From positions 7,313-71,312 of the forward strand of contig JAFGRO010000029.1 of assembly GCA_016935095.1 (NCBI GenBank): a DNA stretch of 64,000 nucleotides. The letters run 5' to 3'. How positions within the stretch are numbered: the first letter of the stretch is position 1; each line of letters starts with the position of its first letter. Source of the DNA: Candidatus Woesearchaeota archaeon. GTDB lineage: Archaea; Nanobdellota; Nanobdellia; Woesearchaeales; GW2011-AR15. Below the pieces are notes generated by a model. It saw nothing but the letters and a program-made list of their open reading frames with translations, was not told the DNA's origin and made no database searches. The translations under genes and the position numbers were made by a program. Below, piece after piece: positions 5,026 to 21,474 of the stretch.

Positions 5026-5457
5026 ATGAGTAAAGTTAAAATTGGAAAAAGGAACGAGTTTGTTATGTGGGCTTTATTATTACAAAATGGAATAGATGTA
5101 TATCCCTCTTTGGTTGATGATAAGGGAATAGATGGTATAGTTGGGTATAATGGAAAGCTTTTTGAAGTACAAATAAAATCTGCAGAAAATTGGTATAATC
5201 ATCGAGGAATTGCGTATGAAACCTGCAAACAAAATCCAGATAGAATTTTTATTATTTATAACTATTCAAAAAAAGAACTTAGGTTTGTGACTGGAAAGCA
5301 AATCATTAAGGAACCTGAGTGGCAGAAAACAATTAGATATCAAATTTCTCAATTGAAATGGAATAAAAAAATGCTAGATAAATATAAAGATCAGGATTTG
5401 AAAGGATTGATTTCATATATAAAGGATCCTAAATCTCCCATATTCTGCTCAAGATAA
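5026..5457 (+). CDS. Hypothetical protein, possible PD-(D/E)xK nuclease-like core
   Basis: GIDGIVGYNGKLFEVQIKS resembles D...E.K restriction-endonuclease-fold motif; weak. Confidence 0.25.
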   Translation: MSKVKIGKRNEFVMWALLLQNGIDVYPSLVDDKGIDGIVGYNGKLFEVQIKSAENWYNHRGIAYETCKQNPDRIFIIYNYSKKELRFVTGKQIIKEPEWQKTIRYQISQLKWNKKMLDKYKDQDLKGLISYIKDPKSPIFCSR

Positions 5458-6389: not shown

Positions 6390-6662
6390 TCACACAATAT
6401 TTGTAACTGGGCTTCTTTCAGTTCCTATTGTTTCTTTATCAAAAGAATATTTATTCCTGAATTTAAAAATCAATATAGAATCATTGTCTTTGTCTATCAT
6501 AGACTTAAGGCTTTTTTTGACTTTTACATAATCAGAATTAGAAAGTTCTCCTTCAAAAACAGAATTCTGTATCCAATTCATATATTGTTTCAGGAATTTA
6601 TTGATTTTGCTAACTTTGCATACATCAACATCATAGACTATAAGACAATACATTACCACCAC
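6390..6662 (-). CDS. cas2: CRISPR-associated endoribonuclease Cas2
   Basis: 90 aa, MVVMYCLIVYDVDV... typical Cas2 N-terminus; overlaps cas1 stop. Confidence 0.85.
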   Translation of the reverse strand: MVVMYCLIVYDVDVCKVSKINKFLKQYMNWIQNSVFEGELSNSDYVKVKKSLKSMIDKDNDSILIFKFRNKYSFDKETIGTERSPVTNIV

Positions 6663-7645
6663 ATCCTGAATGCTTCATACTGCTTTTCGCCAAGAAGGTG
6701 CTTTATCAGCTTATAACATTCAATCCTTATCAATCTTCTGTGCGAAACACGTCTTTTTAATTCAGGATGCTCTATTGTGAGCCTTAACCTGTTGTCAAAT
6801 TCCTTTATTACAAGTCTTCTTCCATTTTCATTGAGCAGGCAGCCCTTAAGTTCTTTCCTGAAATGATGCCCTTTTATCTCTTTTTTATTTACCAGCTTTA
6901 GGATTGCTCTCTGTACAATCAGCGGCTTAAACATCTCACTGAGATCAAGGGCTAATGAAAATCGCCGTTCAAACGGCTCATGAAGGTAGCTTATTGTTGG
7001 GTTGAGTTGTGTATGATAGATTTCACTTAGTACTGATGTATAAAGCATTGAGTTAAGAAAGCTAATCAAACAGTTTATCTCATTTTCAGGCGGCCTTTTT
7101 GTTCTTTTATCAAATTCAAAATCATTGGTGACTATTTCCCTGAATGTTTTGTAATATTCCTGCCAAGCCATCCCTTCAAGGTTCATTATCTCCACTATAG
7201 TATTTATGTTATCCAGCCTTAATGCGAATTTTTCGATTTTCTCCATAGTTTCTTTAACATTTTTGGAATGCTTCCTGTAATGCTCAAGCAGCCTTACAAG
7301 ATTGAAAAGAGAGGCCTTGATGAACTGTTTTGCAATAAATGTTCTTTTTTCATTGTCTATATAGTACTTTACCTGATTAACCAAAAGCGAGCCTGAAACA
7401 AGGCTTTCTTTTGGATAGAAAGAGCCTGTATAGTAGCCATAATAGTTGAAGAAGTGAATTATTATGCCTTGTTTGGATAGGTAAGTCAGCAGTTTAGTGT
7501 TTATTGTAGTTTCTCCCATGCAGTATAATGTATCAATGTTATTTATTGGAAGAGCCTTTTTTTCTTTCTCGTTCTCAAACCAGACAGTATTGTTTTTCCT
7601 TTTCAATGTTCCTGACTGGTTTATGTAAAAGCTTTGGCGTTGCAT
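6653..7645 (-). CDS. cas1: CRISPR-associated integrase Cas1
   Basis: 330 aa; position between cas4 and cas2; Cas1-like sequence. Confidence 0.85.
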   Translation of the reverse strand: MQRQSFYINQSGTLKRKNNTVWFENEKEKKALPINNIDTLYCMGETTINTKLLTYLSKQGIIIHFFNYYGYYTGSFYPKESLVSGSLLVNQVKYYIDNEKRTFIAKQFIKASLFNLVRLLEHYRKHSKNVKETMEKIEKFALRLDNINTIVEIMNLEGMAWQEYYKTFREIVTNDFEFDKRTKRPPENEINCLISFLNSMLYTSVLSEIYHTQLNPTISYLHEPFERRFSLALDLSEMFKPLIVQRAILKLVNKKEIKGHHFRKELKGCLLNENGRRLVIKEFDNRLRLTIEHPELKRRVSHRRLIRIECYKLIKHLLGEKQYEAFRMWW

Positions 7646-7658
7646 TTTGTCTCATAAC

Positions 7659-8129
7659 TTATGAAAAGCACAACTCATAATAGCTGCAATTCTTGCAGTA
7701 TCTTATCCTTTTTGCTTCCGGAGGCTTGTCTTCTCTGCAAAGCAATTCTATGTTTTTTAATACCTCTAAAAGCTCTTTCTCAAGTTCTTCTGACAGCATC
7801 ACTTCCTGAAGCCTGTTGTTTTCCTTGTATTTGATTATGCCTGTTGTATTTGTGCCATGATTCTTAAGCACATAAAGATAATATAATACCTGGAATTCTG
7901 CTGCCTTAGGAGCTGTGTTTTTCTTCTTAAGCTCAAACACCTTGCCATCCCTTAGAGCATCTATCTTTATATTGTCTATCTCTATTTTTTCCTTATCGTA
8001 ATCCTCATGGTAAATCTTTCCTATCTTAACAAAATCAGATTCATGCTCGCACTTAATATTGTGGGAAAAAAGCCACAGCTTTCTTTTGCATGTGAAGTAA
8101 TAATTGATGTGAGTGGCGGTTGGGTTCAT
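7659..8129 (-). CDS. cas4: Cas4 (RecB-like nuclease with C-terminal 4-Cys cluster)
   Basis: N-terminal YYFTCKRKLWLF (CxR-type motif), C-terminal CKNCSYYELC; 156 aa. Confidence 0.8.
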   Translation of the reverse strand: MNPTATHINYYFTCKRKLWLFSHNIKCEHESDFVKIGKIYHEDYDKEKIEIDNIKIDALRDGKVFELKKKNTAPKAAEFQVLYYLYVLKNHGTNTTGIIKYKENNRLQEVMLSEELEKELLEVLKNIELLCREDKPPEAKRIRYCKNCSYYELCFS

Positions 8130-8788
8130 TTGGATTCAAAGTCGCCTTTCTCAAGATCATTGAAATACTCTTCCCTGAGCTTGTTTATTTCGTTCATTAT
8201 AGGAATAACGAGGTTTCTGTTCTCAAGAAGGTCTAGCCTTTCGCCGATATAGGTAATCCATACTCTCTGCTCAGATGTTCTGATTTGGCTTTTAATTTCT
8301 GCAAGCATTACATCCCAATCAATACCTTTTTCTGCCAATAGCAAGCAATCATCAATATCTCCTGGCCTTTCTGTAAATGTCTTGAACATAAAAATGTCTG
8401 TTGTTGAGCATAATGAAATTGAAAGATTCTTCAGTGTCCTTATTGTTTCTGCCCTTTTCATCATGCTCTTTGAGAGAATGAATCCCTTGCAGACAGTTCT
8501 TTGAAAAAGATCAATCCTATAGTCATTTCTTATAAACATCTGATTAAGGTCAATTTTCTTGTATTCTGTAGTTGGTATTTTTGATTCAAAGCCAATATTT
8601 TTTAGAAGTTTTTCCACTGTCCTGAATTCATCAGTAGAATCAACTACAATATCAACATCTTTGGTTGCAGTCTTCATCCCATGATAGAGCATTACTGCTC
8701 CGCCTATAACATAGAAATGCACTTTTTCCTTCAGAGTTTCATCTATTTCTTTGAAGAGTTTGTCAAGGTCATTAAAGCTTAATATCAT
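8126..8788 (-). CDS. Nucleotidyltransferase-fold protein (AbiEii/MNT-like) embedded in cas operon
   Basis: GGAVMLYHGMKTATKDVDIVV matches G[GS]x9-13DxD NTase signature; overlaps cas4 start by 4 nt and upstream wHTH gene by 17 nt. Confidence 0.45.
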   Translation of the reverse strand: MILSFNDLDKLFKEIDETLKEKVHFYVIGGAVMLYHGMKTATKDVDIVVDSTDEFRTVEKLLKNIGFESKIPTTEYKKIDLNQMFIRNDYRIDLFQRTVCKGFILSKSMMKRAETIRTLKNLSISLCSTTDIFMFKTFTERPGDIDDCLLLAEKGIDWDVMLAEIKSQIRTSEQRVWITYIGERLDLLENRNLVIPIMNEINKLREEYFNDLEKGDFESK

Positions 8789-9710
8789 ACATCTCAGCTC
8801 TGTCCCTTATTTCAGACAATGTCGGATAACCCTCTATTTTGTTATTTTGAATTACTTTATTAATATTGTCCAGTATCTCATGATGGATTTTTGAAAGCTC
8901 TTTTTTATACTTTACATAAAACAATGCAAGAAGGATCAGGTTTTGTATGGTTTTTTCCTTTTCACAGCGGTAAAGAGAGTGGACAAAAACTTCTTTCTTC
9001 GATAGTCTCTTTTTGGGCAGGTAATAGTTATTGTCAACTGGATAAATCTTTATTCCATAAATTCCGTAAGCAGAAAAGCCTGTTAATGCTGCATTATATT
9101 CTGCTTTTGTCGAAAAAACAATCTCCTCTTTGGTTTTGTAATAAATTACTGAACCAGGAGGGATTCTCTTATCATATGCCTTTTCATATTTTTTAAGTTC
9201 TGCAAAAAATTCTTTTAAGCCTTTCCATAACTCCCCGTTGAACAGGTATTTGCCATCAATTGTTTTTATGAAGCTCTTTCTTCTGGCAATCCTTATCTTG
9301 TAGAATATTGTGTTTGGCCTGATGCCTGTAGCCTTAGTTATTTCTTCTATGCTTCTTGGAGTGTCTAATATGTAAAGATAAAGCGTTAAGCCGCAGCCTG
9401 AGATATCATCAATAAAGCTTGATTGCCTGCTTAACTCTCGAAGAAGCAGCTGCACATGCAGTAATTCTGATGGCTCAATTGCCTTGTTTTTCAGGCTAAG
9501 AAAGCCTTTTTGCTCTAAGGATTTGATTATCCTGTATATTTGGCTTTTATCCTTGTTTAGAGCTTGAGCTATTTCTAAGACCTGTTTTTTTCCCAGGGCA
9601 ACCTGCTCAAGCAATTGTAATTCTGTCTTTGAAAAGCGCATAACTTTAATAAAATGCAACTTATTTATAAATATTTGGTATTTTTTTGAAGTGAAATAGT
9701 TTTCTAGCAA
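8772..9710 (-). CDS. Winged-HTH transcriptional regulator (AbiEi-like?), partner of downstream NTase
   Basis: N-terminal HTH TELQLLEQVALGKKQVLEIAQALNKDKSQIYRIIKSLEQKGFL, second HTH-like TPRSIEEITKATGIRPNTIFYKIRI; first gene after the 180-bp gap downstream of cas3. Confidence 0.45.
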   Translation of the reverse strand: MLENYFTSKKYQIFINKLHFIKVMRFSKTELQLLEQVALGKKQVLEIAQALNKDKSQIYRIIKSLEQKGFLSLKNKAIEPSELLHVQLLLRELSRQSSFIDDISGCGLTLYLYILDTPRSIEEITKATGIRPNTIFYKIRIARRKSFIKTIDGKYLFNGELWKGLKEFFAELKKYEKAYDKRIPPGSVIYYKTKEEIVFSTKAEYNAALTGFSAYGIYGIKIYPVDNNYYLPKKRLSKKEVFVHSLYRCEKEKTIQNLILLALFYVKYKKELSKIHHEILDNINKVIQNNKIEGYPTLSEIRDRAEMYDIKL

Positions 9711-9890: not shown

Positions 9891-12134
9891 TTATTGGTTC
9901 AAACCATTATCAATTTCTTCCTCTTCAGTTAAACCAAGCTTGTTATCATACTTTTTATTGATAAAATTTCCATCTATTCCATTCTTCCAATATATTGGGA
10001 CTTTTGTAAGATATCCTGTCTTTTCTCTAACATATTGGCGGTATGAAATTTTTTTTTCTTTAAACTCTTCTTCTAGCTTGGCAACTTCTGTACGAAATTT
10101 AGCAGGAAACATACTTACTGACATCAATCCGTCTCTGGTTCGAACCATGTTTCTTAGTTCTTCTTCTTTCAAATCGATAGCATAGATAAAGCTATTTTTC
10201 TGCCAAATTTGTCTAATAGTTTTTGTATTCTCTTCAATTTTATTGACAAGCTTATCTTTTATTATGTCATAATACACATTATTCACCTTAAGTAAATCAT
10301 TTTCATTAGTAATTTTTCTTGTTTGAAGCAATTCTGAAGTTAAAGAAACAAATTCAGGATTATAGGGATACTTTTCTTCATATCTAAAAACTTTAACAAG
10401 CGCAGGTTTCCCAACACTAATATTATTAGGTCCATTATATGAAATTTTTCTGTTTACTCTACCAAACCTTTGGACTAACGAGTCAAAATGTGCACAGTCA
10501 GTATAAAGAACATCAAAATCAATGTCAAGTGAAATTTCCACAATTTGTGTTGATACAAAAATAAAGGGTCCTTTTTTATCTTTTAATTCTTTAAGTTCTT
10601 TTTCTCTATCACATCTATCATTAAGGATAAATCTGCTATGAAGAAGTAATTTTTTTGGAAACTTAATAAGAACCTGGAAGAGTTTTTGTGCTCTCTCAAC
10701 AGTATTGAGCACTATAAGAATTTTTTCTCCTTTTTTGTACTTTTTTCTCAATTCGTCAATCAAGGATTCATAGTCAAAGATATCCGAATCTTTGTATTCA
10801 ATCTTAACTCTCTGAATATGTGAATAAATAGAGTTTACATATTTTGTTTTTAGAACTTCAACAAATCCGTTCTCCTGAAATAATTTTCTAAGATAATCTG
10901 GAAAAGTTGCACTCATTATCAAGAAACGACTTCCATATTTCTTACTTAAATAATCAACAGCAAATTTTAGTAGGCCTAAATTCCGCTCGTCAGTAGCATG
11001 TACTTCATCAATAATGACTGAGCTATTTGAAAATACGACTTCTTTTAACCCATATTTTTTATAGTTCATTAGTGATAAAATTATTTGGTCAAACGTTGTT
11101 ACATTGAGTGCGGGAAAGAAACTCTTTAACAAAGTTTTTTTGGAAAATTCATTTTCATCTGAAAAAACTTCAAAATAGGAATGGTAAAATCCAATTTCCT
11201 CTTCTTTAAATACTTTTTTCAAACGATCATAGATTCCGTTTATACTTGCAGTTGTAGGAAGAACATAAAAATTCTTAAAATTGCTATTCTCTTTAAGCCA
11301 CAGAATAGCTGATTCTGTTTTTCCAAAGCCCGTTGGTAGTTGAAGAAACCCGTTTCCTTTAAACTTGAATATTTTCTCCTGATAATCTCTTAGAGAATAT
11401 CCTTTATGCTTTAGAATAATATCTTCAGGATTTGTCTCTAGCTTTTGTATATTCTCCCTTGAACTAGACAAGTAGTCACTATAGATTATAACTCCGGAAA
11501 TAAATACATAAATTGCTCTTAGCTCCTCACATGGTACATCAACAATATCCCATTTAATTCTATTATAAATTCTTTTTGCCAAATAAGTAGTGTTAGGCTT
11601 TTTATTTACTAATTCCAGTATATTTTCTGGGATTTCAATGTCAAAATTTTTTTGAAATAGTTGTATTTCCTCAAGAACACCACATAAACCAATATCAAAG
11701 GTACTTTGTGGGTCACTTCTATCAAATAATGATTTTTTTAGTGGTGAATGATGAGAAGCAACTGCCAGCATCATGATGTTCTTCAGCAACTTATCTTCGT
11801 CTTTCGAAGCATTGATTATATTATCAATAACAGTAAGAGATAGTAAAGCATGTGAAACCTTCTTTTTTTCACCTGACTTCAGTTGCTTTTGAAAATAAGT
11901 ATCTGCTTTACCTATATCATGAAGCAAGGCACCTATTTGTGCAAATTTGTATATTTGGGTTTCAAGTCCTAAAAAGGATTTATATTTAGGTAACCTAAAT
12001 AGCTGAACTAACTCATTTGCTCTTTCATATGTTTCAATAAGATGAGTCCCAAGCAAAACTTTCTTTTCTTTGGGAGATAAAGGAGAGGGATATTTAGCAT
12101 AAATTTTAGAGTAAGACACAATGCTCATCTCCAA
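9891..12134 (-). CDS. cas3: Cas3 fused HD nuclease + DExH helicase
   Basis: HD motif LLHDIGK near N-terminus; Walker A PTGFGKTE; DExH box VIIDEVHATDE; 747 aa. Confidence 0.9.
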   Translation of the reverse strand: MEMSIVSYSKIYAKYPSPLSPKEKKVLLGTHLIETYERANELVQLFRLPKYKSFLGLETQIYKFAQIGALLHDIGKADTYFQKQLKSGEKKKVSHALLSLTVIDNIINASKDEDKLLKNIMMLAVASHHSPLKKSLFDRSDPQSTFDIGLCGVLEEIQLFQKNFDIEIPENILELVNKKPNTTYLAKRIYNRIKWDIVDVPCEELRAIYVFISGVIIYSDYLSSSRENIQKLETNPEDIILKHKGYSLRDYQEKIFKFKGNGFLQLPTGFGKTESAILWLKENSNFKNFYVLPTTASINGIYDRLKKVFKEEEIGFYHSYFEVFSDENEFSKKTLLKSFFPALNVTTFDQIILSLMNYKKYGLKEVVFSNSSVIIDEVHATDERNLGLLKFAVDYLSKKYGSRFLIMSATFPDYLRKLFQENGFVEVLKTKYVNSIYSHIQRVKIEYKDSDIFDYESLIDELRKKYKKGEKILIVLNTVERAQKLFQVLIKFPKKLLLHSRFILNDRCDREKELKELKDKKGPFIFVSTQIVEISLDIDFDVLYTDCAHFDSLVQRFGRVNRKISYNGPNNISVGKPALVKVFRYEEKYPYNPEFVSLTSELLQTRKITNENDLLKVNNVYYDIIKDKLVNKIEENTKTIRQIWQKNSFIYAIDLKEEELRNMVRTRDGLMSVSMFPAKFRTEVAKLEEEFKEKKISYRQYVREKTGYLTKVPIYWKNGIDGNFINKKYDNKLGLTEEEEIDNGLNQ

Positions 12135-12795
12135 ATTTAAATTGCGCTACAGGTTCATAAAAATTCAGATTGACATTATAGAACATAAGTACTTCTCTCT
12201 GCTCTTCCAGCGTTCTTCTGCTTCCTTTATAAGAGAAAGAGTGCGCACACTTGCATACCTGTGGGCTTATGAAAAATCCAGTTCCAATCTGAATATTATA
12301 TTTCTCTTTTGTTTCAATGAAAGAATCTACCTTACTGTCTTCCGTGTTTGCTATTTCATACAGAGAAGAAACGTTCTCAACTACAGCAAGAAAATCAGAG
12401 TGTCCTAAGTAGAGGACCCTAGAAGGAGAGATAATTGAATCATAAATTTCTCTAATCAATTTTTCATTTTCAGTAGCTATAAAAATTTTAAAGCTTGGTC
12501 TGTTCAGAAGCTTCCTAGATGTAATAGTACTATCTGACTGCTTTTTTTTATCGGTTTTTAAGTTCTTTAATTTCCATAAGTCATTAATAAAACCAGAAAT
12601 GTTAATGATTTTGACCCCTATAAACAATTTTGCATACAGTTCATTCATTTCATCATACTGCAAACCCATAGCGTTGCCTATCATCCCAACAATATGAGTC
12701 TTTTGTGGGCCGATCAGGCTATCAAAAAAAGAAAGAGTAAAGGGATTTCTAAAGAAAGCCATGTCTCCTCTCAAAATAAAATGAAATCCTTTCAT
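12106..12795 (-). CDS. cas5: Cas5
   Basis: 229 aa, MKGFHFILRGDMAFFRNPF... Cas5-like N-terminus; overlaps cas3 start, follows cas7. Confidence 0.75.
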   Translation of the reverse strand: MKGFHFILRGDMAFFRNPFTLSFFDSLIGPQKTHIVGMIGNAMGLQYDEMNELYAKLFIGVKIINISGFINDLWKLKNLKTDKKKQSDSTITSRKLLNRPSFKIFIATENEKLIREIYDSIISPSRVLYLGHSDFLAVVENVSSLYEIANTEDSKVDSFIETKEKYNIQIGTGFFISPQVCKCAHSFSYKGSRRTLEEQREVLMFYNVNLNFYEPVAQFKFGDEHCVLL

Positions 12796-13688
12796 GATAA
12801 ATCTAGTTGTTCAAGTTTTGTCTTCAAGTCTTTCAGACTCAGAATTTCTACTTTTTTATTACTTTCAAAAGCTTTCTCCAATTCGCTAGCATTAGATATA
12901 AAATAATCTAGATATCCAATTATTACTGTTTCAAGCTGCTCATCATACAATTCAATAACCTGCTTTAACCTGCTAACATCAATATTTTTGTTTTCATCCA
13001 TCCATAGTCTGTCGAAGATTGTCAATGCTTTATCTCTCCTAATTACAGCAATCATAAATTCTGGCGAGGTCTTTGTCAGAAAATTAGTTTGTTTTCCCCC
13101 ACCCCATGAATTGAAGACTGCTTCAATTAGTTCTCTAAAATGCTTTTTTTTATATTTATCATCAATCTCTTTATCGTCGCTCTCGTCAACACCAATCCTA
13201 TCTAGTTCAATCGCGAAATTTCCTCGCATGAGATTACTGGAAACCTCAATATCATAGAGACTATGATTTGTTCCCTTTGGATCATATCTCACACCACGAT
13301 TGATATCGCCTTTATATTCATAAAGAGAAATAAGGCCATTTGTTTTTACGGGAGCTACTCTTGTCTTCTTCAGATTTGTATTCATATAGCCAAATAAATC
13401 ATCATCAATGAAACTTATATCACAAGAAGAAGAAACTTGGCTTGCTTCCTCTTTTTCTTTTTCAGTTGCTTTAGCATCTTTTTTTGATAAGACATCTGAA
13501 ATTGGGACGCCTTTTGATTTCCAGTATTCTTTAAAGGCGTATTTCAGTGAAACACCTGACACATATACTCTTTGTTTGCCGTCAAAATCTTCTGTTTTCT
13601 TCAGTGTAGCTATGTTGCCTTCAGTAGAATTGCTATTAATATTGGCATTTTCAATTCTTGTTAGATATGCTAGTTCTAGTAATTTCAT
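12792..13688 (-). CDS. cas7: Cas7 (Csh2-like backbone subunit)
   Basis: 298 aa, position between cas8 and cas5; 4-nt overlap with cas5. Confidence 0.7.
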   Translation of the reverse strand: MKLLELAYLTRIENANINSNSTEGNIATLKKTEDFDGKQRVYVSGVSLKYAFKEYWKSKGVPISDVLSKKDAKATEKEKEEASQVSSSCDISFIDDDLFGYMNTNLKKTRVAPVKTNGLISLYEYKGDINRGVRYDPKGTNHSLYDIEVSSNLMRGNFAIELDRIGVDESDDKEIDDKYKKKHFRELIEAVFNSWGGGKQTNFLTKTSPEFMIAVIRRDKALTIFDRLWMDENKNIDVSRLKQVIELYDEQLETVIIGYLDYFISNASELEKAFESNKKVEILSLKDLKTKLEQLDLS

Positions 13689-13690
13689 TT

Positions 13691-15088
13691 TTATCCCTCC
13701 ACATTATTTGATTCTTTTTTCTCTTTTAAGAAGACTGCATTTGTTAGTCCAATAAGGAAAAAGGTCTTTAGTTGTGCAAAATCATCCATATGTTCTATGA
13801 ATATGTCACCTCTAATGCCAGTCCCTATTTTCAATTGGAGCCGGTTCAGTAGATTCATGAACTCTTCTTGATTTCTTGCTCTTCTCATATCATAAATCTC
13901 TTTAATGATAACATTTTGCCTTGATTCATTCCTTTTGAATTGCATCCCTATTGAGAAGGCATGTTTATATACCTCGTTAAACAATTCTTTTTTATCCATT
14001 TCAAACACCTCAAAGTAAGATTTTAATACAGTTCTGCTGAAACTTATTAGCTGAACCTGCTTAAGCTGTTCAGCTTTACTCTTTTTTTTATACTCATCAA
14101 GCTTAAGAAATAATATTTCCTCAAGAATTCTCCAATTGAGTCTATTATTTCTACACAGGGAGAGCATAAGAGCATTTCTATTAATAAGTTGAGCTTCATC
14201 TTTAGGATTTACAATTAGTGAATTCAAGAAAGAGCTAAAAGGTCGAATCAATGTCCCTTTAGCATTTCTCTTTATAGATTGGTTGGTTTTGTTTAGAAAG
14301 GTAATAATTAGATTTAAATTATTTAGATTGTCGAATTCTCTATAGATTTTTTTACTTTTGGATAAGTCTGCTGACAGAACAAGCGCACCAACATCAAGCT
14401 GATCTTCTTTAGCAAGTTCTTTTTGCTCGTTAAGAAGTTGTGTTATATAATCAAGAAATGAAATTAATAAATAGTATGCCCCATAAATATAGTACGAGCC
14501 GGTAATGTTGACATTTTTAAAGTAATTATTTGTTGAAGCGTCCATGTTCATCCTATGAGTCATTAAATGATTTACATGTTTGGGGTTTCCATAGAGGATA
14601 ATTATTGAGGTAAGATTTTTCTCTGTTATAAAACATACATTTCGATATGCTGCAAATAGTATGTTCTTACATTTGTGACAGGCTACAAATTCAGATGTGC
14701 CACCATAAAGATTTGGAAACTTTTGCTTAGTAATGATGAACGGGAAATAGAAAGAAGTAATTGTTCCTGCCCCTTTTGATTCACAAATTATACATTTCTT
14801 TTGATTTTTTTCTTCTTTTTGAAGAAGTTCTTTCATATATTCGAAATCTGTTCTGCTTCCTTTTGATTGAAGTTGAGCGCCGAGGAAGCTGTTGGCAAAT
14901 ATAGTTCTTGTTAGCTTATTATCTTTGCTTGTGTAAAGATTGTTAATGATGATACCCTCATCAAGTCCCTTCTTTGGAATTAAATCAATGTCAATACTCT
15001 CCTCTCTTGTTTTAGAAAAAAGTCCTTTCCTAGATTTCTGAAAGTAACTTAATGTTGCCAATCCTGAACTATACCATTCTTTTATCAT
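13691..15088 (-). CDS. cas8b: Cas8-family large subunit (type I-B-like Cas8b)
   Basis: 465 aa immediately upstream of cas7 in the interference operon; Cys-rich segment CIICESKGAG...CHKCKN. Confidence 0.55.
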   Translation of the reverse strand: MIKEWYSSGLATLSYFQKSRKGLFSKTREESIDIDLIPKKGLDEGIIINNLYTSKDNKLTRTIFANSFLGAQLQSKGSRTDFEYMKELLQKEEKNQKKCIICESKGAGTITSFYFPFIITKQKFPNLYGGTSEFVACHKCKNILFAAYRNVCFITEKNLTSIIILYGNPKHVNHLMTHRMNMDASTNNYFKNVNITGSYYIYGAYYLLISFLDYITQLLNEQKELAKEDQLDVGALVLSADLSKSKKIYREFDNLNNLNLIITFLNKTNQSIKRNAKGTLIRPFSSFLNSLIVNPKDEAQLINRNALMLSLCRNNRLNWRILEEILFLKLDEYKKKSKAEQLKQVQLISFSRTVLKSYFEVFEMDKKELFNEVYKHAFSIGMQFKRNESRQNVIIKEIYDMRRARNQEEFMNLLNRLQLKIGTGIRGDIFIEHMDDFAQLKTFFLIGLTNAVFLKEKKESNNVEG

Positions 15089-15574
15089 TTATTCCCCCAA
15101 CCCCTCCATCACTTCCTCCATCGTCTCCTTATGTCCCCAGCCCTCGCAGCTTCTTTCAACTATTGAAATTAACCTATCCTTAAACAAAGGTATTAAATCC
15201 GTATTATCATTTAAGTTTTTAATAATCTGCTCAAACATCGATTCCATGCTTGAGTAGAAGGCTTCATACATATCCCCATATTCTTCTCCAATTCTTACGC
15301 CTGTCTCAACATAGAACACCATCAGCTCCAGAAGATGCTCCGGCTGCTTTGATATTCTTTTAAAGTCTGTTATTGCTTTTCTTGCTTCTCTAAGGTTAAT
15401 CCGTTCATTCCAGAGAATGCTTTTGAGCTTTTTCTTAAAGTACTCAAGGGCATCTTCCGGCTTATTCTCGAGCTTCAGCCTCAAAAAATCAGCGTTTTCT
15501 TTATTCAGGCTTGATAGCTCTAAAAGGAGTGAGTATAGTTCTTCTTTCTCCAATTGTTTAAGCACATTATTCAT
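15089..15574 (-). CDS. Hypothetical helical protein in GC-rich island inside cas operon
   Basis: 161 aa; markedly higher GC than flanks; start overlaps upstream ORF by 8 nt. Confidence 0.4.
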   Translation of the reverse strand: MNNVLKQLEKEELYSLLLELSSLNKENADFLRLKLENKPEDALEYFKKKLKSILWNERINLREARKAITDFKRISKQPEHLLELMVFYVETGVRIGEEYGDMYEAFYSSMESMFEQIIKNLNDNTDLIPLFKDRLISIVERSCEGWGHKETMEEVMEGLGE

Positions 15575-16409
15575 TTTTTTTCAATCGTTTCTTTTTCTCT
15601 GCTTCTGTCTCTAACAGATAGTTTTCCTGCGAAACAACCTTTGATCCTGATTCAAGCTCAAGATTTTTTCTTGCATCACCAGCTATTTTTCCGCCTTTTT
15701 GTGCGGCTGACCTGTTTTCAGTGAAGCCTTGTGAATCCCGGCTCCTTGTTATTTTTGTGGTTGAAGCTTCACCCAGCATTGTAAATATGAGTTCTAAGTC
15801 GTCCATATGGTCTCTTAAATTTTCCCGAGTTAAACTCTTGAAATTCTTATACTCTTCAACAGTCTTGCCAAAAGTTGCTTTGCTTATTTCATTGGTAAGA
15901 ATTGCGTATTCTTTTTGTTGCTTAACTCCTCTTTTATCCCACTCATCTGTGAGTTCCTGCCTGACTGCTATCCCTCTCACTCTTTTCTCTATCCAATCAT
16001 CTGAGTATCCTTTTGCTTTGTAAAGCTCCTTCATTCGTGCCTGGACCAGCTCAGGATTCTCTATCTCCTGCACTCTCTCATATCCAACCTGAGCCAGCCA
16101 CCGCTTGAAGGGTTCTGCTTTGGGTGACGGGATTGATTGAATAATACGAAACATGTTTCTGGTGTTTGCGCAGTCTGTTGCCCTGAATTTTCCATCTTCT
16201 GCAGGCAGTTTTAACTGTACGATTTTATCGTACGGTTCAAATCCTTCATCAGAAAGCTTAGATTTTAAGTCAGACCAATATCTCTTTGGTAGTGAGCTTG
16301 CTTCTAAAGCGTTAACCACATCTATGATAGAAAAATACCATTCATTATTATGCCAAATCCTCCGGATATTTTTGTCTTGAAATACAACCAAAGCATTGTG
16401 TTCGATCAT
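15567..16409 (-). CDS. Bro-N domain protein (DinD/Bro family-like) in GC-rich island
   Basis: N-terminal VVFQDKNIRRIWHNNEWYFSIIDVVNALEASSLPKRYW resembles Bro-N consensus (F...iR....g.pwF.a.Dva.aL); charged C-terminal region. Confidence 0.45.
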   Translation of the reverse strand: MIEHNALVVFQDKNIRRIWHNNEWYFSIIDVVNALEASSLPKRYWSDLKSKLSDEGFEPYDKIVQLKLPAEDGKFRATDCANTRNMFRIIQSIPSPKAEPFKRWLAQVGYERVQEIENPELVQARMKELYKAKGYSDDWIEKRVRGIAVRQELTDEWDKRGVKQQKEYAILTNEISKATFGKTVEEYKNFKSLTRENLRDHMDDLELIFTMLGEASTTKITRSRDSQGFTENRSAAQKGGKIAGDARKNLELESGSKVVSQENYLLETEAEKKKRLKKNE

Positions 16410-16450
16410 ATTCTAACCATCCCTTTCCTGTCTTTTCCTGCAAATTCCAT

Positions 16451-16732
16451 TTATCTCATTCCCATCATTCTGCACAACGGACAATCATCATGTCTCCAGC
16501 TAAACCTTGCATTCTTCCATTCATCATCCGATAATGTGCATATCGTCCTGTCAGTCCTGAGCATGTTCAAAAAATCCCTGTGTGTCATCTCAGTTCCTTC
16601 AAGCTTTCTTGCCAGCTCGTCCAGTTTTGGCCAATGCTCATTGTGCAATTCTTCCCGTTCATAGCATTTCCTTGTACAGTAATTCCCGTGAAACCAATTT
16701 ACCAAATGCCTGATTTTAACTGGTCTTTTCAC
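16451..16732 (-). CDS. Small Cys-containing protein (CxxxC ... CxxC) in GC-rich island
   Basis: 93 aa, CTRKC and CPLC; start overlaps cas6 stop by 4 nt. Confidence 0.35.
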   Translation of the reverse strand: MKRPVKIRHLVNWFHGNYCTRKCYEREELHNEHWPKLDELARKLEGTEMTHRDFLNMLRTDRTICTLSDDEWKNARFSWRHDDCPLCRMMGMR

Positions 16733-17478
16733 GTCTTCACCACATTCATAAACCCAAATCCAGAGCTATTCAACTCTCCAAACCCTGACTCTAAACCAAG
16801 CCATAACACTCTCCTTTTCAATTCATCTAAGTGTGAAAACCGGAATTCCCACAAACTGCCAATTGTGGGTATCTCATTTCCTTCTTCTATCCTGTGAACA
16901 CATACAGATTTCTTGAACTTGAATATCTCAAATAAATCAATAGTTTTCATTTCGGAGCTATAATACTGGTTGTATTTCTTAACAAGATTATCAGAAATCT
17001 GTTTTAGGAAAGCATTAAAGTCATATTCAGGGCGCCAGTACTCATAAGGCCTTTTACTTTTAATACCATATATATGATAATTTTGTTTTGGTATCCTCAT
17101 TACAATTGGTGTTCCTGTAATAAGGCTTGCTTTCTCAGTAATAAAAGGCTTCAGGTAGCTTATCTCATCAATGCTAAACATTGATTCTCCTATTAATACA
17201 GGCTTATTGAATTGCTTTATCTCTGCAATCCTTCCGTAAAGAAACCTTATAAAATCACTATCTGGCGAAGAAATAATAAAATGACGTTCTTCTCCTGTTT
17301 TAACATCCTCTACAGGAAATATGTTTGAATAGCAGAAAAACTTATAATATCCCTTATCATGCTTATTGAAATACTTTGATTCCTTCATAAGGCCATAGAC
17401 AAATCCCCTTAGCTTAGAATAATACTTCTCATCATAAGAAAAATCTTTCAGGGCTTTGAATTTTAATATTATACGCAT
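16729..17478 (-). CDS. cas6: Cas6 crRNA endoribonuclease
   Basis: 249 aa, C-terminal glycine-rich loop GLESGFGELNSSGFGFM typical of Cas6; first gene of operon. Confidence 0.8.
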   Translation of the reverse strand: MRIILKFKALKDFSYDEKYYSKLRGFVYGLMKESKYFNKHDKGYYKFFCYSNIFPVEDVKTGEERHFIISSPDSDFIRFLYGRIAEIKQFNKPVLIGESMFSIDEISYLKPFITEKASLITGTPIVMRIPKQNYHIYGIKSKRPYEYWRPEYDFNAFLKQISDNLVKKYNQYYSSEMKTIDLFEIFKFKKSVCVHRIEEGNEIPTIGSLWEFRFSHLDELKRRVLWLGLESGFGELNSSGFGFMNVVKT

Positions 17479-17783: not shown

Positions 17784-18284
17784 ATGAAAATAAAACTCAC
17801 AATAGAACTTGTACCTTCTACAGTCTGGTTTTCTTCTCTTTATAATATTTTTAAGAACAGCAGCCAGCAGGCTTTATGGAGAGATATTAAAAATATGATA
17901 TTTAAAAAAGAAGGCAGAAAATGCTGGGTGTGCGGCAGAACAGATAGAAGGCTGGAGGCACATGAGTTCTGGGATTATGATGATAAAAACAAAATTCAAA
18001 AATTGGTAGCAATTCACCATTTATGTGATTTGTGCCACAAAGTAAAGCATATAGGATTATGGTTGCATACAGATAAAGGGGCAAGGCTTCTAGATCAACA
18101 AGGATTAGATAGTTTTGATGTTGTTAATCATTTTTGTGCGGTCAACAACTGCGATCAAGATGTCTTTGATAAATGCGAAGAAGAAGCCTTTAAAGTATTT
18201 GCTGAGAGAAGCAAATATCAGTGGAAGCAGGATTTTGATGCTTATGAGAAAATAATAAGACCATTAATTAAAAATGAGTATTAA
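17784..18284 (+). CDS. HNH endonuclease-domain protein
   Basis: CWVCGR...LEAHEFW...IHHLCDLCHKVKH: CxxC / HH / CxxCH HNH signature; divergent from cas6. Confidence 0.5.
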   Translation: MKIKLTIELVPSTVWFSSLYNIFKNSSQQALWRDIKNMIFKKEGRKCWVCGRTDRRLEAHEFWDYDDKNKIQKLVAIHHLCDLCHKVKHIGLWLHTDKGARLLDQQGLDSFDVVNHFCAVNNCDQDVFDKCEEEAFKVFAERSKYQWKQDFDAYEKIIRPLIKNEY

Positions 18285-18609: not shown

Positions 18610-19161
18610 TTGAAAAAAGCAGATTTAGCCATTAATACTGTCTTTGTAATACTTGTTACGATAATCAGCATTATCCTTATCCTTGGAATTTTCTCTACAA
18701 AACTGCCTGGGTTTGCAAAAGGCATTTACTGCAAGACCTTTTTTTATATTCATTCTGCAGCTTTTATCCCAAAAGGGTTGAGAGCAGACCAGAACTACTG
18801 CATCTCTGAAAATGCATTGGCCCCTGCTGAAATAATAAATGACCCAGAAACACTAAACATCACTGTTCTCGGTTATGTTATAGCTTGCTGGAAAGAGATG
18901 GATTATGGAAGGTATTCTGATAATTTTCTTTGTTTTGAATTAACAGCTGGACCGAGGATTACTGATCCTGTTCCTATATCTGAGGAAGAAATAACCCATA
19001 TATTAATTGATGAAAAGATGTGTGATGTTCTTGCAAATAATGATTCAATATCAGACTGCGGGGATGAAAACAATATTCAATGGAATCTAGATGCAATATA
19101 TCCCCGGCAGAATATACTGATTGAATATAATGCTGAGAATAAGGAAGTGATTGTGAGTTAG
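18610..19161 (+). CDS. Secreted/membrane-anchored protein, possible class III (type IV pilin-like) signal peptide
   Basis: MKKADLAINTVFVILVTIISIILILG: short basic N-terminus then long hydrophobic helix, archaeal pilin-like; convergent with secretion ATPase. Confidence 0.3.
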   Translation: MKKADLAINTVFVILVTIISIILILGIFSTKLPGFAKGIYCKTFFYIHSAAFIPKGLRADQNYCISENALAPAEIINDPETLNITVLGYVIACWKEMDYGRYSDNFLCFELTAGPRITDPVPISEEEITHILIDEKMCDVLANNDSISDCGDENNIQWNLDAIYPRQNILIEYNAENKEVIVS

Positions 19162-19176
19162 TTCCACAAAAGAATG

Positions 19177-21474
19177 TTATTCCTTCCTGTTTAACTTCCG
19201 CTTCTTTATCTCCTGTTCAAACCACTGCTCCCACTCAAAATAAATTTTCTTATGGTCTAAAATGCCTGTTTCTTCTTTTACTTTATCTGCCATTAAATGG
19301 AATACGTCATTGCACAAAATCACAAATCCTGCTTCCATCATTTCATCATCTTTCAGCTTTAAAGCTGTATCTGCCAGTTTCTGCCTGCACTGGGCTCTTG
19401 TCTCTATATTTTCCCAGACTGCATCCCAGTTTGCTGCAAAATCAGGTATATTCCCTGCAATGATCTTTAAAATTTCAGATTCGCCGTTAATTAATTCAGG
19501 AGTAGGAATAAGCTCATCTTTTTTTGAATCATATTTCATCAGATCAAGGAATGCCCCCTCTAAAAGAGGATCATTTTCCCATGTTTTTCTCACTTCTGTT
19601 ATCTGAGTGATCCTCCTGAACCTGTGCAGGCCGTCTGCAGATTTAATTGGCGTGGCAATTATACATATATCCGTTGCCTTGAAGCTTGTTTTTGGAACGC
19701 CTATATCATTTACAACGCGGTCATAAATCCCGTAAGGAGAATCTCCGTGAATCGTGCCGGCAACGACATTTGCAGCAGCACCAACGCGCATTGCCTCATA
19801 GAGTGAAATTGCTTCTTTGCTGCGGACTTCCCCTACAATCAAAGATGAATCCCCTAACCTTAAAGTAGCCCTGATGCCGTCAGAAGCGCTTACTTCTGCT
19901 GTGCCATGTGATAATGCTGATGCAACTTTCAGCTGCTGGATATTGAAACCAAGATTCCTTAATTGTCTCACAGGGAGCTCTAAAGTATCTTCAATTGTAA
20001 TTACCCTGTACCTGCGCATTATCTCAACAATTAAAGCAGAAAGAAATGAAGATTTCCCTGAACTGCGTGTACCGCAGATAAGCATTGTCCTCGTACCATC
20101 AATAAGAAAACTCAATAGCCCCGCTGCAAGAGAATTAATCATCTTGAATTTCATAAATAATGGAAGTGTCCATGGCTTGTCACGATGTCTTCTGAATGAA
20201 AAAGCCAACCCGGTCGGATTTAAAGGAGCTGTTATTGCCGAAACCCTGGTATTCGCTCCCGGCAAATCAAGCTCTGTATCCAATATAGGATTCGCTTCAT
20301 CCAATGGTCTTCCGGAAATCATTCTAAGCTTGGATGCCCATGATTCTGCTTCAGTTGTCGTAGGAATAATATTTGTAACACAGTCATCAAACTTCCCATG
20401 TACAATAAATATAGGAATATGGCCCATAGGACTATTTATTGAGATATCCTGAATCTCTTCATCCTGCAGTAAAACCTCTATTAAACCAAAGCCGACAGTA
20501 TACCTGACTAAAATTGCTGTCAATTCAATAATTTCCTTTTCCCTCAGCTTCATATTCCTGTATGAGCCAAGCTCTTCAATAAGGTCCCTGCCAACATTAA
20601 AAAAGACTTCCCTCATCCTCTGGGGGTCTACAAATTCAGATTTTTTCGGCTTATGCTCCGCCATTATCTTTTTTGCAACATCCAATAACTCATATTTTTC
20701 TTCGCTTAATTTAAATTCAGGAGGCATCATATGATAAAATATCTGGACATTTTCCTGAAGTTTAAATACAGTTATTTCAGTATCTTCTGCAATTGTATAA
20801 TTGGCAATTTCTTCACCCCCTTTTGGATATGCTGACATTAATTTAGTGTACATAAAATCAGGCTTAATCATCGGCTTAAAAATTCTCCTGTAAACAGACC
20901 TGTCTCCGATTTCATATCCTGCTAAATATGGCTTTGCAATTATTATAAATCGGGTTTGTTCCAATTGTACGATGATCTGGTTTAATAATCCTATGAACTT
21001 ATTGTAACAATAATTTGATAAATTATCAATTGATTTCTCAAGTAAAATCTGTTCCTGTCTTTTTAGCCGTTTTAATTCTACATATGCACTAAACGGGTCT
21101 TTAATCATCAGGTCAAATATTATATGTTGAAGTTCATTATACCAGGCATCTACAAATCTCCTGCATCTCCCGAAAGATAATGCCTGGTAGCTGAATGTTG
21201 TTTTGTCTTTAGAATAATAAAGAAAAAGTTTTGCTATTTCATTTAACATCATGGTCTGTTCATAATCATACTCATATTCCCGTTTTTGAAAAAAGATTAT
21301 TTTTGTTATGCCATGGGTCTGTGCCAGCTTTTCAACTGTTTTTGCCATGCACCTTGGATTGTCTTCAATTGAGGGCAATTGTAAACTTTTAGAGTAATCT
21401 CCCCTCAGGATATTATCCTCACCCTCCCTGTCTACAGAAAAAACAATCTTATCATTAATTTCAGTTTTAGGCAT
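19177..21474 (-). CDS. Type II/IV secretion-system ATPase (FlaI/PilB/VirB11 family) with long N-terminal extension
   Basis: Walker A ICGTRSSGKSSF, Walker B/Asp box DSSLIVGEVRSKEA, His box TIHGDS; 765 aa. Confidence 0.8.
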   Translation of the reverse strand: MPKTEINDKIVFSVDREGEDNILRGDYSKSLQLPSIEDNPRCMAKTVEKLAQTHGITKIIFFQKREYEYDYEQTMMLNEIAKLFLYYSKDKTTFSYQALSFGRCRRFVDAWYNELQHIIFDLMIKDPFSAYVELKRLKRQEQILLEKSIDNLSNYCYNKFIGLLNQIIVQLEQTRFIIIAKPYLAGYEIGDRSVYRRIFKPMIKPDFMYTKLMSAYPKGGEEIANYTIAEDTEITVFKLQENVQIFYHMMPPEFKLSEEKYELLDVAKKIMAEHKPKKSEFVDPQRMREVFFNVGRDLIEELGSYRNMKLREKEIIELTAILVRYTVGFGLIEVLLQDEEIQDISINSPMGHIPIFIVHGKFDDCVTNIIPTTTEAESWASKLRMISGRPLDEANPILDTELDLPGANTRVSAITAPLNPTGLAFSFRRHRDKPWTLPLFMKFKMINSLAAGLLSFLIDGTRTMLICGTRSSGKSSFLSALIVEIMRRYRVITIEDTLELPVRQLRNLGFNIQQLKVASALSHGTAEVSASDGIRATLRLGDSSLIVGEVRSKEAISLYEAMRVGAAANVVAGTIHGDSPYGIYDRVVNDIGVPKTSFKATDICIIATPIKSADGLHRFRRITQITEVRKTWENDPLLEGAFLDLMKYDSKKDELIPTPELINGESEILKIIAGNIPDFAANWDAVWENIETRAQCRQKLADTALKLKDDEMMEAGFVILCNDVFHLMADKVKEETGILDHKKIYFEWEQWFEQEIKKRKLNRKE

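Follow-up and report, generated by a model that had tools for sequence, protein, structure and literature searches.

In the canonical gene order of type I-B CRISPR-Cas loci (Makarova classification), cas8b comes directly after cas6. The complete type I-B locus of a Woesearchaeota MAG departs from this order: three genes, spanning 1644 nt, separate cas6 from cas8b (15089-16732, minus strand, of the window, the 64,000-nucleotide stretch of contig JAFGRO010000029.1 that was analysed). We asked what these genes are, and whether they belong to the CRISPR machinery, assist it or only travel with it. A preliminary description, made from the sequence alone, had placed three co-directional ORFs here, and all three are indeed present on the minus strand at the coordinates it gave (Table 1). 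The remainder of the locus has the gene set of type I-B, with cas6, cas8b, cas7, cas5, cas3 (HD and helicase), cas4, cas1, cas2 and a CRISPR array, on one strand.

Table 1. Features of the type I-B locus, in positions of the window.
Feature	Position	Strand	Remark
Gene 1, 93-aa Cys/His-rich small protein	16451-16732	minus	GTG start; 4-nt overlap with the cas6 stop
Spacer between genes 1 and 2, 41 nt	16410-16450	minus	Purine-rich (GGAAAGGGATGG) immediately 5' of the gene 2 ATG; read from the sequence
Gene 2, 280-aa Bro-N protein, PDC-S13 family	15567-16409	minus	PADLOC PDLC04920
Gene 2 Bro-N domain, residues 14-107	16089-16370	minus	Pfam PF02498, 4.7e-13
Gene 2 DdrC-CTD/DinD-like region, residues 138-228	15726-15998	minus	Family profile versus DdrC PDB sequences; hhalign; NCBIfam DinD
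Gene 3, 161-aa DUF6155 protein, predicted alpha-solenoid	15089-15574	minus	8-nt overlap with gene 2; stop abuts the cas8b ATG
cas6, upstream host gene	16729-17478	minus	TIGR01877, 1e-28; PF01881
cas8b, downstream host gene	13691-15088	minus	PADLOC Cas8b, 1.9e-16, residues 86-462; without Pfam or NCBIfam match
cas7	12792-13688	minus	TIGR02585, 1.3e-44
cas5	12106-12795	minus	TIGR02592, 1e-14
cas3	9891-12134	minus	TIGR01587, 5.9e-75, and HD domain
cas4	7659-8129	minus	ORF
cas1	6653-7645	minus	ORF
cas2	6390-6662	minus	ORF
CRISPR array	5597-6286		11 identical 30-nt repeats, 10 spacers of 35-37 nt

The tight packing reported for the insert, with overlaps of 4 and 8 nt, holds for the junction of cas6 with gene 1, where stop and start codons share GTGA, and for that of genes 2 and 3 (ATGAATAA), but not for genes 1 and 2, which are separated by the 41-nt spacer. 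At the downstream end, gene 3 runs directly into cas8b (TAAATG). Since junctions overlap or abut, and the insert has no terminator-like site on the minus strand, co-transcription of the three genes with the Cascade genes is plausible. The same absence of a minus-strand terminator, together with the identical repeats of the array and full-length Cas6 and Cas8b, makes the CRISPR-Cas system look functional. We detected no self-targeting, as none of the 10 spacers matched the window or any retrieved locus. The locus also has a second inserted pair, wHTH and DUF6036, and a wHTH (Csa3-like) regulator is encoded in it.

The Bro-N domain that had been recognized in the middle gene was confirmed (PF02498, residues 14-107, 50 bits against a gathering cut-off of 25.6). 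The 280-aa protein matched PADLOC family PDLC04920 (PDC-S13) over nearly its whole length (3.4e-121, 401.9 bits, residues 1-275 on profile positions 1-277 of 286), as well as phrog_15286 (3.8e-97); its closest PHROG and PADLOC matches are families without an assigned function. PDC-S13 comprises 828 clusters (50% identity) at E<=1e-30. An exact-sequence look-up of the protein gave no match, and a scan of viral contigs with the single sequence gave none, whereas an alignment-based scan of these contigs did. PDC-S13 is a candidate phage-defence family that emerged from 'guilt-by-embedding', having been found in type I RM, BREX and DISARM operons (Payne et al., bioRxiv 10.1101/2024.01.29.577857); the main text of that study does not mention CRISPR, and its supplements carry no text on PDC-S13. 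Like the founding members of the family, which are embedded and co-oriented in multi-gene defence operons, the window copy lies embedded and co-oriented between cas6 and cas8b. Unlike them, it is hosted by the type I-B CRISPR-Cas effector operon of an archaeon, and it has relatives in I-C and I-E loci.

The C-terminal half of PDC-S13 aligns with the C-terminal helical domain of DdrC from Deinococcus radiodurans, and the motifs W..R......R.EL and RD..T..EL are common to both. The family profile matched the DdrC PDB sequences 7udi, 8u0g and 7qvb marginally (hmmsearch, E 0.003-0.0095); hhalign gave 78% probability (E 1.8e-5) over ~90 residues only, the alignment on the DdrC side spans only residues 114-220, and the DNA-contacting residues of DdrC are only partly conserved in PDC-S13. 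The N-termini differ: DdrC begins with a winged-helix/Dachshund-like domain not found in gene 2, which begins with Bro-N. DdrC, moreover, is induced by damage, acts in repair and has been described as specific to Deinococcus; it is not a defence-island gene, and it binds and bridges nicks and double-strand breaks, in part via its CTD (PMC11347143). A similar stretch of gene 2 (residues 140-227) aligns with positions 139-228 of the NCBIfam DinD model NF008573 (E 0.0017). Gene 2 is close in size to the SOS-induced DinD of E. coli; it scores 17.8 bits, however, where the equivalog model (NF008573) requires 242, and we therefore reject it as a DinD orthologue. DinD is a regulator of RecA filaments according to PMC4457935 (citing Uranga 2011). 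Judged by these alignments, the C-terminal domain of PDC-S13 is probably related by descent to DdrC, a binder of DNA breaks, and to DinD. RhuM (PF13310) has been proposed as a toxin lodged in R-M loci (Anantharaman et al. 2013, PMC3710099). It is a family of its own, differs from PDC-S13 in the C-terminal domain and is not present in the window. Its similarity to PDC-S13 is weak and local (26% over 49 residues, in L012), and its genes share neighbourhoods with PDC-S13 and DUF6155 in the DPANN loci L003, L006, L012 and L177.

The 161-aa product of gene 3, previously thought to have no recognizable family, matches DUF6155 (PF19652) with 29 bits against a gathering cut-off of 27, over model positions 10-167 of 170. 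Most of its 58 homologues are already annotated with PF19652. Its predicted fold is that of an alpha-solenoid, and not of Cas11. We found no paper on DUF6155, and a BFVD search with the DUF6155 model returned no significant match. For the 93-aa product of gene 1 the CxxxC...CxxC pattern was borne out; C19, C23, H33, H51, C65, C84 and C87 are invariant across 10 homologues. Homologues of this gene were found only on a few DPANN-type contigs, and in L007 and L008 it occurs without PDC-S13 or DUF6155.

We found that both larger genes recur in other type I cas operons, which strengthens the earlier idea of a new Cas accessory module. In the 80 closest metagenome loci, which form our survey of PDC-S13 contexts, the gene lies inside or beside type I-C or I-E cas operons seven times. 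The order is cas3-cas5c-cas8c-cas7c-[PDC-S13]-cas4-cas1c-cas2 in the type I-C locus L157 and ...cas5e-cas6e-[PDC-S13]-cas1e-cas2e in the type I-E loci L114, L142 and L097; elsewhere PDC-S13 is upstream of cas3-cas5c-cas8c (L165), beside cas1c ([PDC-S13]-cas1c, L160) or upstream of a trio whose last member is Cas7c-like (L158). Three further copies in this survey (L105, L137, L147) belong to operons of type I RM systems. Homology among the three I-E loci extends over their whole length, embedded gene included, at 67-70% nucleotide identity, which indicates long retention of PDC-S13; these loci are counted as one insertion event. Across the family, cas-embedded copies are scattered in the tree and sit at differing positions, and thus several independent insertions have taken place. 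DUF6155 behaves alike. It lies inside type I cas loci of Bacteroidota (L025, L028, L043, L069), four loci that may likewise go back to one insertion, and both archaea and bacteria have it in type I RM operons (L010, L014, L019/L020, L024, L053, L173-176). The Cas1 of the window is 41-45% identical to Cas1 of these Bacteroidota loci. Among archaeal relatives, a Bro-N or RhuM gene lies within three genes of DUF6155 in 6 of 11 distinct loci. The lodging of PDC-S13 within type I-B, I-C and I-E cas operons is a new observation, as is that of DUF6155 within type I cas loci and type I RM operons. Most copies of both families are outside cas and RM operons: they neighbour housekeeping genes or are carried by plasmids and predicted viral contigs, the latter numbering at least 240. 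Neither family, therefore, needs a Cas or Hsd partner.

The three genes had been described as one cassette, but they differ in distribution, and a single conserved three-gene cassette was rejected. The 80 closest PDC-S13 loci all lack both DUF6155 and the 93-aa gene, and PDC-S13 was the adjacent partner in none of the bacterial DUF6155 loci. As the trio occurs together only in DPANN archaea (the window, L012 and, in part, L010), the insert is a composite of embedding-prone genes. Its horizontal acquisition, also proposed before, is upheld: the genes do not belong to the core I-B set and are horizontally mobile. The 280-aa protein is 63% identical to a protein of an alphaproteobacterial plasmid, and the DUF6155 protein is 80% identical (75% in nucleotides) to a copy that a Nanoarchaeota MAG has inside a type I RM operon; for Cas8b, by contrast, no relative could be detected (a metagenome scan gave none, and a homologue search returned the protein alone). 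An integron-like or transposon cassette was rejected, since there is no recombinase gene nearby and the insert borders have no meaningful direct or inverted repeats and no target-site duplication.

The high GC content described for the insert was confirmed by sliding-window comparison: at 0.399, against a window mean of 0.333, it is in the top 0.5% of equal-sized windows (s.d. 0.025; 0.48% reach this value). The 93-aa, 280-aa and 161-aa genes have GC contents of 0.422, 0.396 and 0.387, respectively, and the flanking cas6 and cas8b 0.335 and 0.318. In the 280-aa gene the excess is in codon positions 1 and 2 (z 1.8; GC3 z 0.7), and its homologues are above their flanks in GC in other low-GC hosts and below them in high-GC hosts; this part of the excess thus reflects conserved protein composition. 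GC3 is raised only in the 93-aa and 161-aa genes (z 2.4 and 2.0, respectively). The GC excess is, therefore, valid only in part as proof of recent transfer.

The best explanation, to which we give about an even chance, is that mobile defence-island genes prone to embedding have come together as a composite insert between cas6 and cas8b, where they are expressed with the Cascade operon and have an accessory or second-line role. The three genes are probably helper or back-up immunity genes and not core CRISPR parts. Gene 2 would be a DNA-binding protein, with Bro-N at its N-terminus and a C-terminal domain related to DdrC and DinD; gene 3 would be a helical-repeat adaptor, and gene 1 a small metal-binding protein restricted to DPANN-type archaea. 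The I-B genes and array are intact, the three genes are co-oriented with coupled junctions, and both larger families recur in immune operons built on an SF2 translocase-nuclease, either HsdR (type I RM) or Cas3 (type I-B, I-C, I-E and I-B-like). Presumably co-transcribed with Cascade, gene 2 may bind nicked or broken DNA, or recombinase filaments, arising when Cas3 or HsdR attacks an invader, as its homology suggests. In such an accessory or second-line role it could, for example, keep the invader from being rescued by recombination, bridge or hold its fragments, or set off a back-up response if the host system is inhibited, in the way that PrrC backs up EcoprrI. DUF6155 would serve as the protein-protein adaptor of gene 2. 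On the sequence data, the most likely role is that of an accessory or back-up module whose targets are DNA lesions made by Cas3 or HsdR.

Such an arrangement resembles PrrC in the EcoprrI type I RM operon and BrxU in BREX, each an extra co-oriented gene in a defence operon that could guard or complement the host system. PrrC, however, is an ABC-ATPase/HEPN anticodon nuclease and BrxU a GmrSD nuclease, whereas the insert proteins have no recognizable nuclease or ATPase domain. The CRISPR-linked accessory genes (Csa3, CARF, WYL and others; Shmakov et al. 2018 'CRISPRicity') are likewise non-core and recurrent in cas loci, but they are mostly tied to type III signalling, in contrast to PDC-S13 and DUF6155, which are tied to type I systems and type I RM. 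The searchable texts on CRISPR accessory genes make no mention of the Bro-N, DinD or DUF6155 families.

Defence loci are known sinks for insertions, and embedding alone is, therefore, no proof of cooperation. The genes might be passive hitchhikers, selfish or neutral mobile single genes that gain expression and spread in insertion-tolerant defence operons while adding nothing to CRISPR immunity. We consider this somewhat unlikely, though it is the alternative to be taken most seriously. L158 and L165 share only the PDC-S13 gene with ~25 nt on either side, at 87% nucleotide identity and with unrelated flanks, which points to single-gene mobility; a recombination scar of a PDC-S13 gene in L010, the carriage on plasmids and viral contigs, neighbourhoods that are otherwise heterogeneous (tRNA synthetases and metabolic genes among them) and the second inserted pair of the window locus are in line with this. 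A 'genomic sink' hypothesis is also discussed by Payne et al. (bioRxiv 10.1101/2024.01.29.577857). Protein identity of 55-80% across domains of life, however, argues for selection on function, and PDC-S13 has stayed intact while whole I-E loci diverged to 67-70% nucleotide identity. In addition, the embedded gene is co-oriented in every case, with tight junctions, and both families recur in Cas3-based and HsdR-based systems alike.

Alternatively, PDC-S13, with or without DUF6155, could be a stand-alone second defence system that works independently of Cascade and Cas3, as BrxU does in BREX. The listing of PDC-S13 as a single-gene defence candidate, the predominance of solo copies without Cas or Hsd neighbours, and a prophage and plasmid carriage typical of defence genes are consistent with such autonomy. 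Yet a search of the three proteins revealed no recognizable effector domain of the nuclease, NADase or pore kind, a DNA-binding protein alone would be unusual as a complete defence system, and the bias to translocase-nuclease hosts suggests dependence on them. We regard full autonomy as unlikely; it overlaps with the accessory or back-up explanation, and sequence cannot separate the two.

The Bro-N protein might instead tune cas or hsd expression, in the manner of phage anti-repressors or transcription factors. Bro-N proteins of phages are annotated as anti-repressors (PHROG matches of 1e-7 to 1e-2), and Bro-N serves as a sequence-specific DNA-binding module (PMC8263062). These anti-repressor PHROGs, however, match the N-terminal domain only, and the best PHROG and PADLOC matches are the families without assigned function. 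With a dedicated wHTH (Csa3-like) regulator already in the locus, and with solo copies among housekeeping genes in many genomes, which would be unexpected for a regulator of the host operon, we find this quite improbable.

Anti-CRISPR proteins inhibit the Cas effector and are usually encoded on a mobile element beside an aca regulator. The foreign composition of the insert and the presence of the family on viral contigs and plasmids would suit domesticated anti-defence genes of this kind, left by a mobile element. But if the genes encoded an inhibitor, their co-transcription with Cascade would shut the host system down, and yet the cas genes and array are intact; embedded copies persist through the long divergence of I-E loci, the same families are found in RM operons of many lineages, and no integrase, repeats or other mobile-element remnants lie beside the insert, all of which makes this origin very improbable indeed. 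Finally, gene 3 might be read as encoding a cryptic small subunit of the Cas11/Csa5 type, which would make the insert part of the core effector. Its product is indeed a small all-helical protein encoded directly upstream of cas8b. This reading is effectively refuted, however: the faint PADLOC Cas11b match (E 0.026, 45 residues) is non-significant, the predicted fold is an alpha-solenoid and the family also occurs outside cas loci.

Within the accessory or back-up explanation we advance, tentatively and as a rather unlikely proposal in its full form, that PDC-S13 and DUF6155 serve specifically as accessory factors of immune systems with a translocase-nuclease, namely type I CRISPR-Cas (Cas3) and type I R-M (HsdR). 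They would recognize the nicks, gaps or ends that Cas3 and HsdR leave on invader DNA, and would then prevent repair by recombination, keep fragments available for capture by Cas1-Cas2 or set off a back-up response if the host system is inhibited. If true, this would define a new class of CRISPR/RM accessory module in which DNA-damage sensing is tied to immunity, and DdrC, regarded as Deinococcus-specific, would be an offshoot of a very large mobile family. The natural I-C and I-E loci provide a short list in which the embedded genes can be probed for interference, primed adaptation and resistance to anti-CRISPR phages. PDC-S13, an embedded-defence candidate family, is shown here to lodge repeatedly also in cas operons, and DUF6155 does so in CRISPR and RM operons; this recurrence, together with the probable link to DdrC and DinD, gives an opaque candidate family a concrete and testable mechanism.

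The window, part of an 85-kb MAG contig of a Candidatus Woesearchaeota (DPANN) archaeon (locus tags JXB41_04095 to 04110), encodes a complete type I-B CRISPR-Cas system on its minus strand, with three additional genes between cas6 and cas8b. The junctions are coupled: gene 1 overlaps cas6 by 4 nt, gene 2 overlaps gene 3 by 8 nt, and the stop codon of gene 3 abuts the cas8b ATG. The preliminary description listed 4- and 8-nt overlaps but not the 41-nt spacer between genes 1 and 2. No terminator-like site was found on the minus strand inside the insert, which would be co-transcribed with Cascade.

The cas3-cas4 interval (8126-9710, minus strand) holds a second embedded pair, a 312-aa wHTH protein with a Csa3/CasR-like HTH (TIGR01884, 7.6e-10; PADLOC CasR, 1e-10) and no CARF match, and a 220-aa DUF6036 nucleotidyltransferase (PF19502, 3e-7) whose gene overlaps the wHTH gene. 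The pair could be a regulator plus nucleotidyltransferase module, or toxin-antitoxin-like. A 166-aa HNH endonuclease gene (17784-18284, plus strand; phrog_5200, 1.1e-25; weak IscB-HNH similarity) diverges from cas6, and just past the array lie two genes, one for a 124-aa SET-domain protein (4341-4715, minus strand; PF00856, 4e-17), the other for a 143-aa protein weakly similar to PD-(D/E)XK/DUF4365 (5026-5457, plus strand).

Features of the type I-B locus (window coordinates) and of related loci from other genomes and metagenomes (L-numbers, locus coordinates); [gene], PDC-S13 gene
Feature	Position	Strand	Type	Gene order
cas6	16729-17478	-		
gene 1, 93 aa	16451-16732	-		
gene 2, 280 aa	15567-16409	-		
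gene 3, 161 aa	15089-15574	-		
cas8b	13691-15088	-		
cas7	12792-13688	-		
cas5	12106-12795	-		
cas3	9891-12134	-		
wHTH protein with Csa3-like HTH	8772-9710	-		
DUF6036 nucleotidyltransferase	8126-8788	-		
cas4, cas1, cas2	between DUF6036 gene and array	-		
CRISPR array, 11 identical 30-nt repeats	5597-6286	-		
L157			I-C	cas3-cas5c-cas8c-cas7c-[gene]-cas4-cas1c-cas2
L114, L142, L097			I-E	cas3-cse1-cse2-cas7e-cas5e-cas6e-[gene]-cas1e-cas2e-array
L165				[gene]-81 aa-96 aa-cas3-cas5c-cas8c
L160				[gene]-rhuM fragment-cas1c
L158				[gene] upstream of 227-685-295 aa trio, last member Cas7c-like
~115-aa protein	L003:8551-8898, L006:8467-8817, L012:6344-6745, L013:6467-6826, L177:6486-6830, L180:6482-6817			

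We confirmed that the insert is richer in GC (0.399) than the window (0.333), cas6 (0.335) and cas8b (0.318); 0.48% of equal-sized sliding windows reach its value. GC3 is raised in gene 1 (z 2.4) and gene 3 (z 2.0), while in gene 2 GC is up at codon positions 1+2 (z 1.8) and not at position 3 (z 0.7). At 40 loci with homologues of gene 2, the gene exceeds its flanks in GC when the host is GC-poor and falls below them when the host is GC-rich. Part of the signal thus stems not from recent transfer but from the composition that strong conservation of the protein fixes. A 765-aa ORF (19177-21474) has its conserved core in the sole other stretch of the window matching the insert's GC (18650-20900), and there high GC accompanies a long ORF, not an obvious insertion.

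Gene 2 has the predicted Bro-N domain (Pfam, residues 14-107) and matches PADLOC family PDC-S13 over its full length (3.4e-121), as well as phrog_15286 of PHROGs (3.8e-97). The PDC systems are 145 phage defence candidates, proposed because their genes are embedded in operons of BREX, DISARM or type I RM systems; 96.7% of embedded genes share the orientation of their host system (Payne et al., bioRxiv 10.1101/2024.01.29.577857). PDC-S13 is a very large family: at E<=1e-30 it comprises 828 clusters (50% identity), and at E<=1e-3 it grows to 9179. Gene 2 is 63% identical to a plasmid-encoded protein from an alphaproteobacterial amoeba symbiont; plasmid copies are stand-alone genes. Relatives occur on at least 240 predicted viral contigs, and in the phage GenBank set in only four tiny records.

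A profile of 40 family members marginally matched three PDB entries of Deinococcus DdrC in their C-terminal domain (E 0.003-0.0095), and hhalign aligned gene 2 residues 138-228 with DdrC 115-202 (78% probability, E 1.8e-5). The same stretch also gave a weak match to the model for E. coli DinD, with 17.8 bits where the cut-off is 242. Given the Bro-N match and this similarity, gene 2 is most aptly called a Bro-N protein whose C-terminal domain is probably of DdrC/DinD type; it is an orthologue of neither DdrC nor DinD. DdrC binds and bridges nicks and double-strand breaks, with C-terminal domain residues touching the DNA backbone (PMC11347143), and is called Deinococcus-specific in PMC9303277; DinD regulates RecA filaments, according to a passage of PMC4457935 citing Uranga 2011. 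We found no earlier description of a PDC-S13-DdrC link.

Gene 3, said previously to lack a recognizable family, is assigned by Pfam to DUF6155, on which we found no literature; its identification as Cas11 was rejected. It has 58 homologues, many at 60-82% identity. The best 80 DUF6155 loci from a scan of one genome per species span DPANN, Halobacteriota and a dozen or more bacterial phyla, with mixed but defence-flavoured immediate neighbours (ResIII/DEAD helicases, AEP-TOTE, Cas4, PLD, Mrr, Vsr, HsdS, DUF3644). In stand-alone archaeal loci a conserved protein of ~115 aa (MIDTTLIDRLTVLANKEKKIKE...) follows DUF6155, overlapping its stop codon; where DUF6155 is embedded and hsdR or cas8b comes directly after it, this protein is always absent. 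A Pfam scan of its L012 copy gave no match.

Homologues of gene 1 (nine clusters at 56-68% identity, plus one in L012) keep C19, C23, H33, H51, C65, C84 and C87 invariant. The structure model is fair (pLDDT 81), and no fold relatives of it were found. The gene would encode a metal-binding protein.

The proposed three-gene cassette holds for DPANN archaea only: neither DUF6155 nor the 93-aa gene occurs in any of the best 80 PDC-S13 loci. Another Woesearchaeota genome (L012) carries 211 aa-93 aa-PDC-S13-RhuM-PDC-S13-DUF6155-115 aa between housekeeping genes, with gene 1 just before PDC-S13 as in the window; in L007 and L008/L009 gene 1 has unrelated neighbours. A Bro-N or RhuM gene lies within three genes of DUF6155 in 6 of 11 distinct archaeal-type loci. 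This differing co-occurrence indicates that the insert is composite, each of its genes having its own history. In a nanoarchaeotal locus (L010) the order is hsdM-...-hsdS-164 aa-[PDC-S13 piece]-[other Bro-N gene]-DUF6155-HNH-hsdR. The piece comprises only the first 71 residues (~200 nt; 78% nt identity to the window), DUF6155 is 80% identical to gene 3 in protein and 75% in nucleotides, and the other Bro-N gene shares 70% identity, over its C-terminal 207 residues, with the 211-aa gene that precedes the 93-aa gene in L012. The region (L010:4781-5967) looks like a recombination scar with domain swapping among Bro-N genes. The adjoining HNH gene is barely similar to that of the window (23% identity, E 0.003).

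The main new result is the recurrent embedding of PDC-S13 and DUF6155 in cas and RM operons. Among the best 80 metagenome loci (NCBIfam and BLAST annotation, crude ORF calls, usable flanks in only 32), PDC-S13 lies in or beside cas loci in seven and in type I RM operons in three or four (L105, L137, L147, perhaps L153). By a rough estimate, well under 1% of a genome consists of cas loci, and seven of 80 may be a large excess over this share. The cas-embedded copies are scattered in a neighbour-joining tree and occupy different operon positions, which implies a minimum of four or five separate insertion events.

DUF6155 behaves similarly. In Marinilabiliales (L025, L028, L043, L069; around position 6000) it separates the effector module of a type I cas locus from the adaptation module, in L028 as cas3-624 aa-cas7-220 aa-[DUF6155]-362 aa-cas4-GxxExxY-cas1-cas2. 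With the unannotated 362-aa gene and the GxxExxY-family gene (TIGR04256, 7.6e-41), both between cas5 and cas1, L028 thus has several embedded genes. Type I RM operons also carry DUF6155, either embedded or appended (L010, L014, L019/L020, L024, L053, L173-176), and in the window and several RM-embedded loci it directly precedes the large-subunit gene (hsdR or cas8b). Metagenome contigs L173-L176 (~2600-4200 of L173) read hsdS-NTP_transf_2 (193 aa)-178 aa-DUF6155-hsdR-YgjP-like, sharing the hsdR/YgjP backbone with L010; the partners there are the nucleotidyltransferase gene and an unannotated 178-aa gene, not Bro-N genes. Both families, then, recur in operons of immune systems that use an SF2 translocase-nuclease, Cas3 or HsdR.

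The strongest rival to a functional association is that the genes are passive hitchhikers in a 'genomic sink'. This would account for the heterogeneous neighbourhoods and for single-gene mobility: L158:5976-6834 and L165:2974-3832 are 87% identical over the PDC-S13 ORF +/- ~25 nt with unrelated flanks, so the moving unit is a single gene (the insert in the window showed neither repeats nor a recombinase). Hitchhiking, however, leaves unexplained the strong protein conservation and the long retention in type I-E loci, where L114, L142 and L097 are homologous end to end, across the embedded gene as well (67-70% nt identity), indicating that the gene was kept through long divergence. An autonomous defence gene is not told apart by sequence alone from an accessory role. 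Regulation of the host operon is less likely, because the locus already has a Csa3-like regulator, and so is an anti-defence remnant, because the host system is intact.

The candidate family of gene 2 and embedding in defence operons as a phenomenon are already known. We found no description of PDC-S13 in CRISPR-Cas effector operons (Payne et al. do not use the term 'CRISPR' in their main text), nor any mention of Bro-N, DinD or RhuM in two papers on CRISPR-linked genes.

We have high confidence that the insert is composite, embedded and, presumably, co-expressed, and modest confidence in a lesion-binding mechanism. Homology to DdrC and DinD suggests that gene 2 may bind nicked or broken DNA or recombinase filaments, and the DUF6155 solenoid may be an adaptor. 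On the favoured reading the insert would be an accessory or second-line module acting on Cas3-made DNA lesions or, alternatively, one released when the host system is blocked, by analogy with PrrC/EcoprrI.
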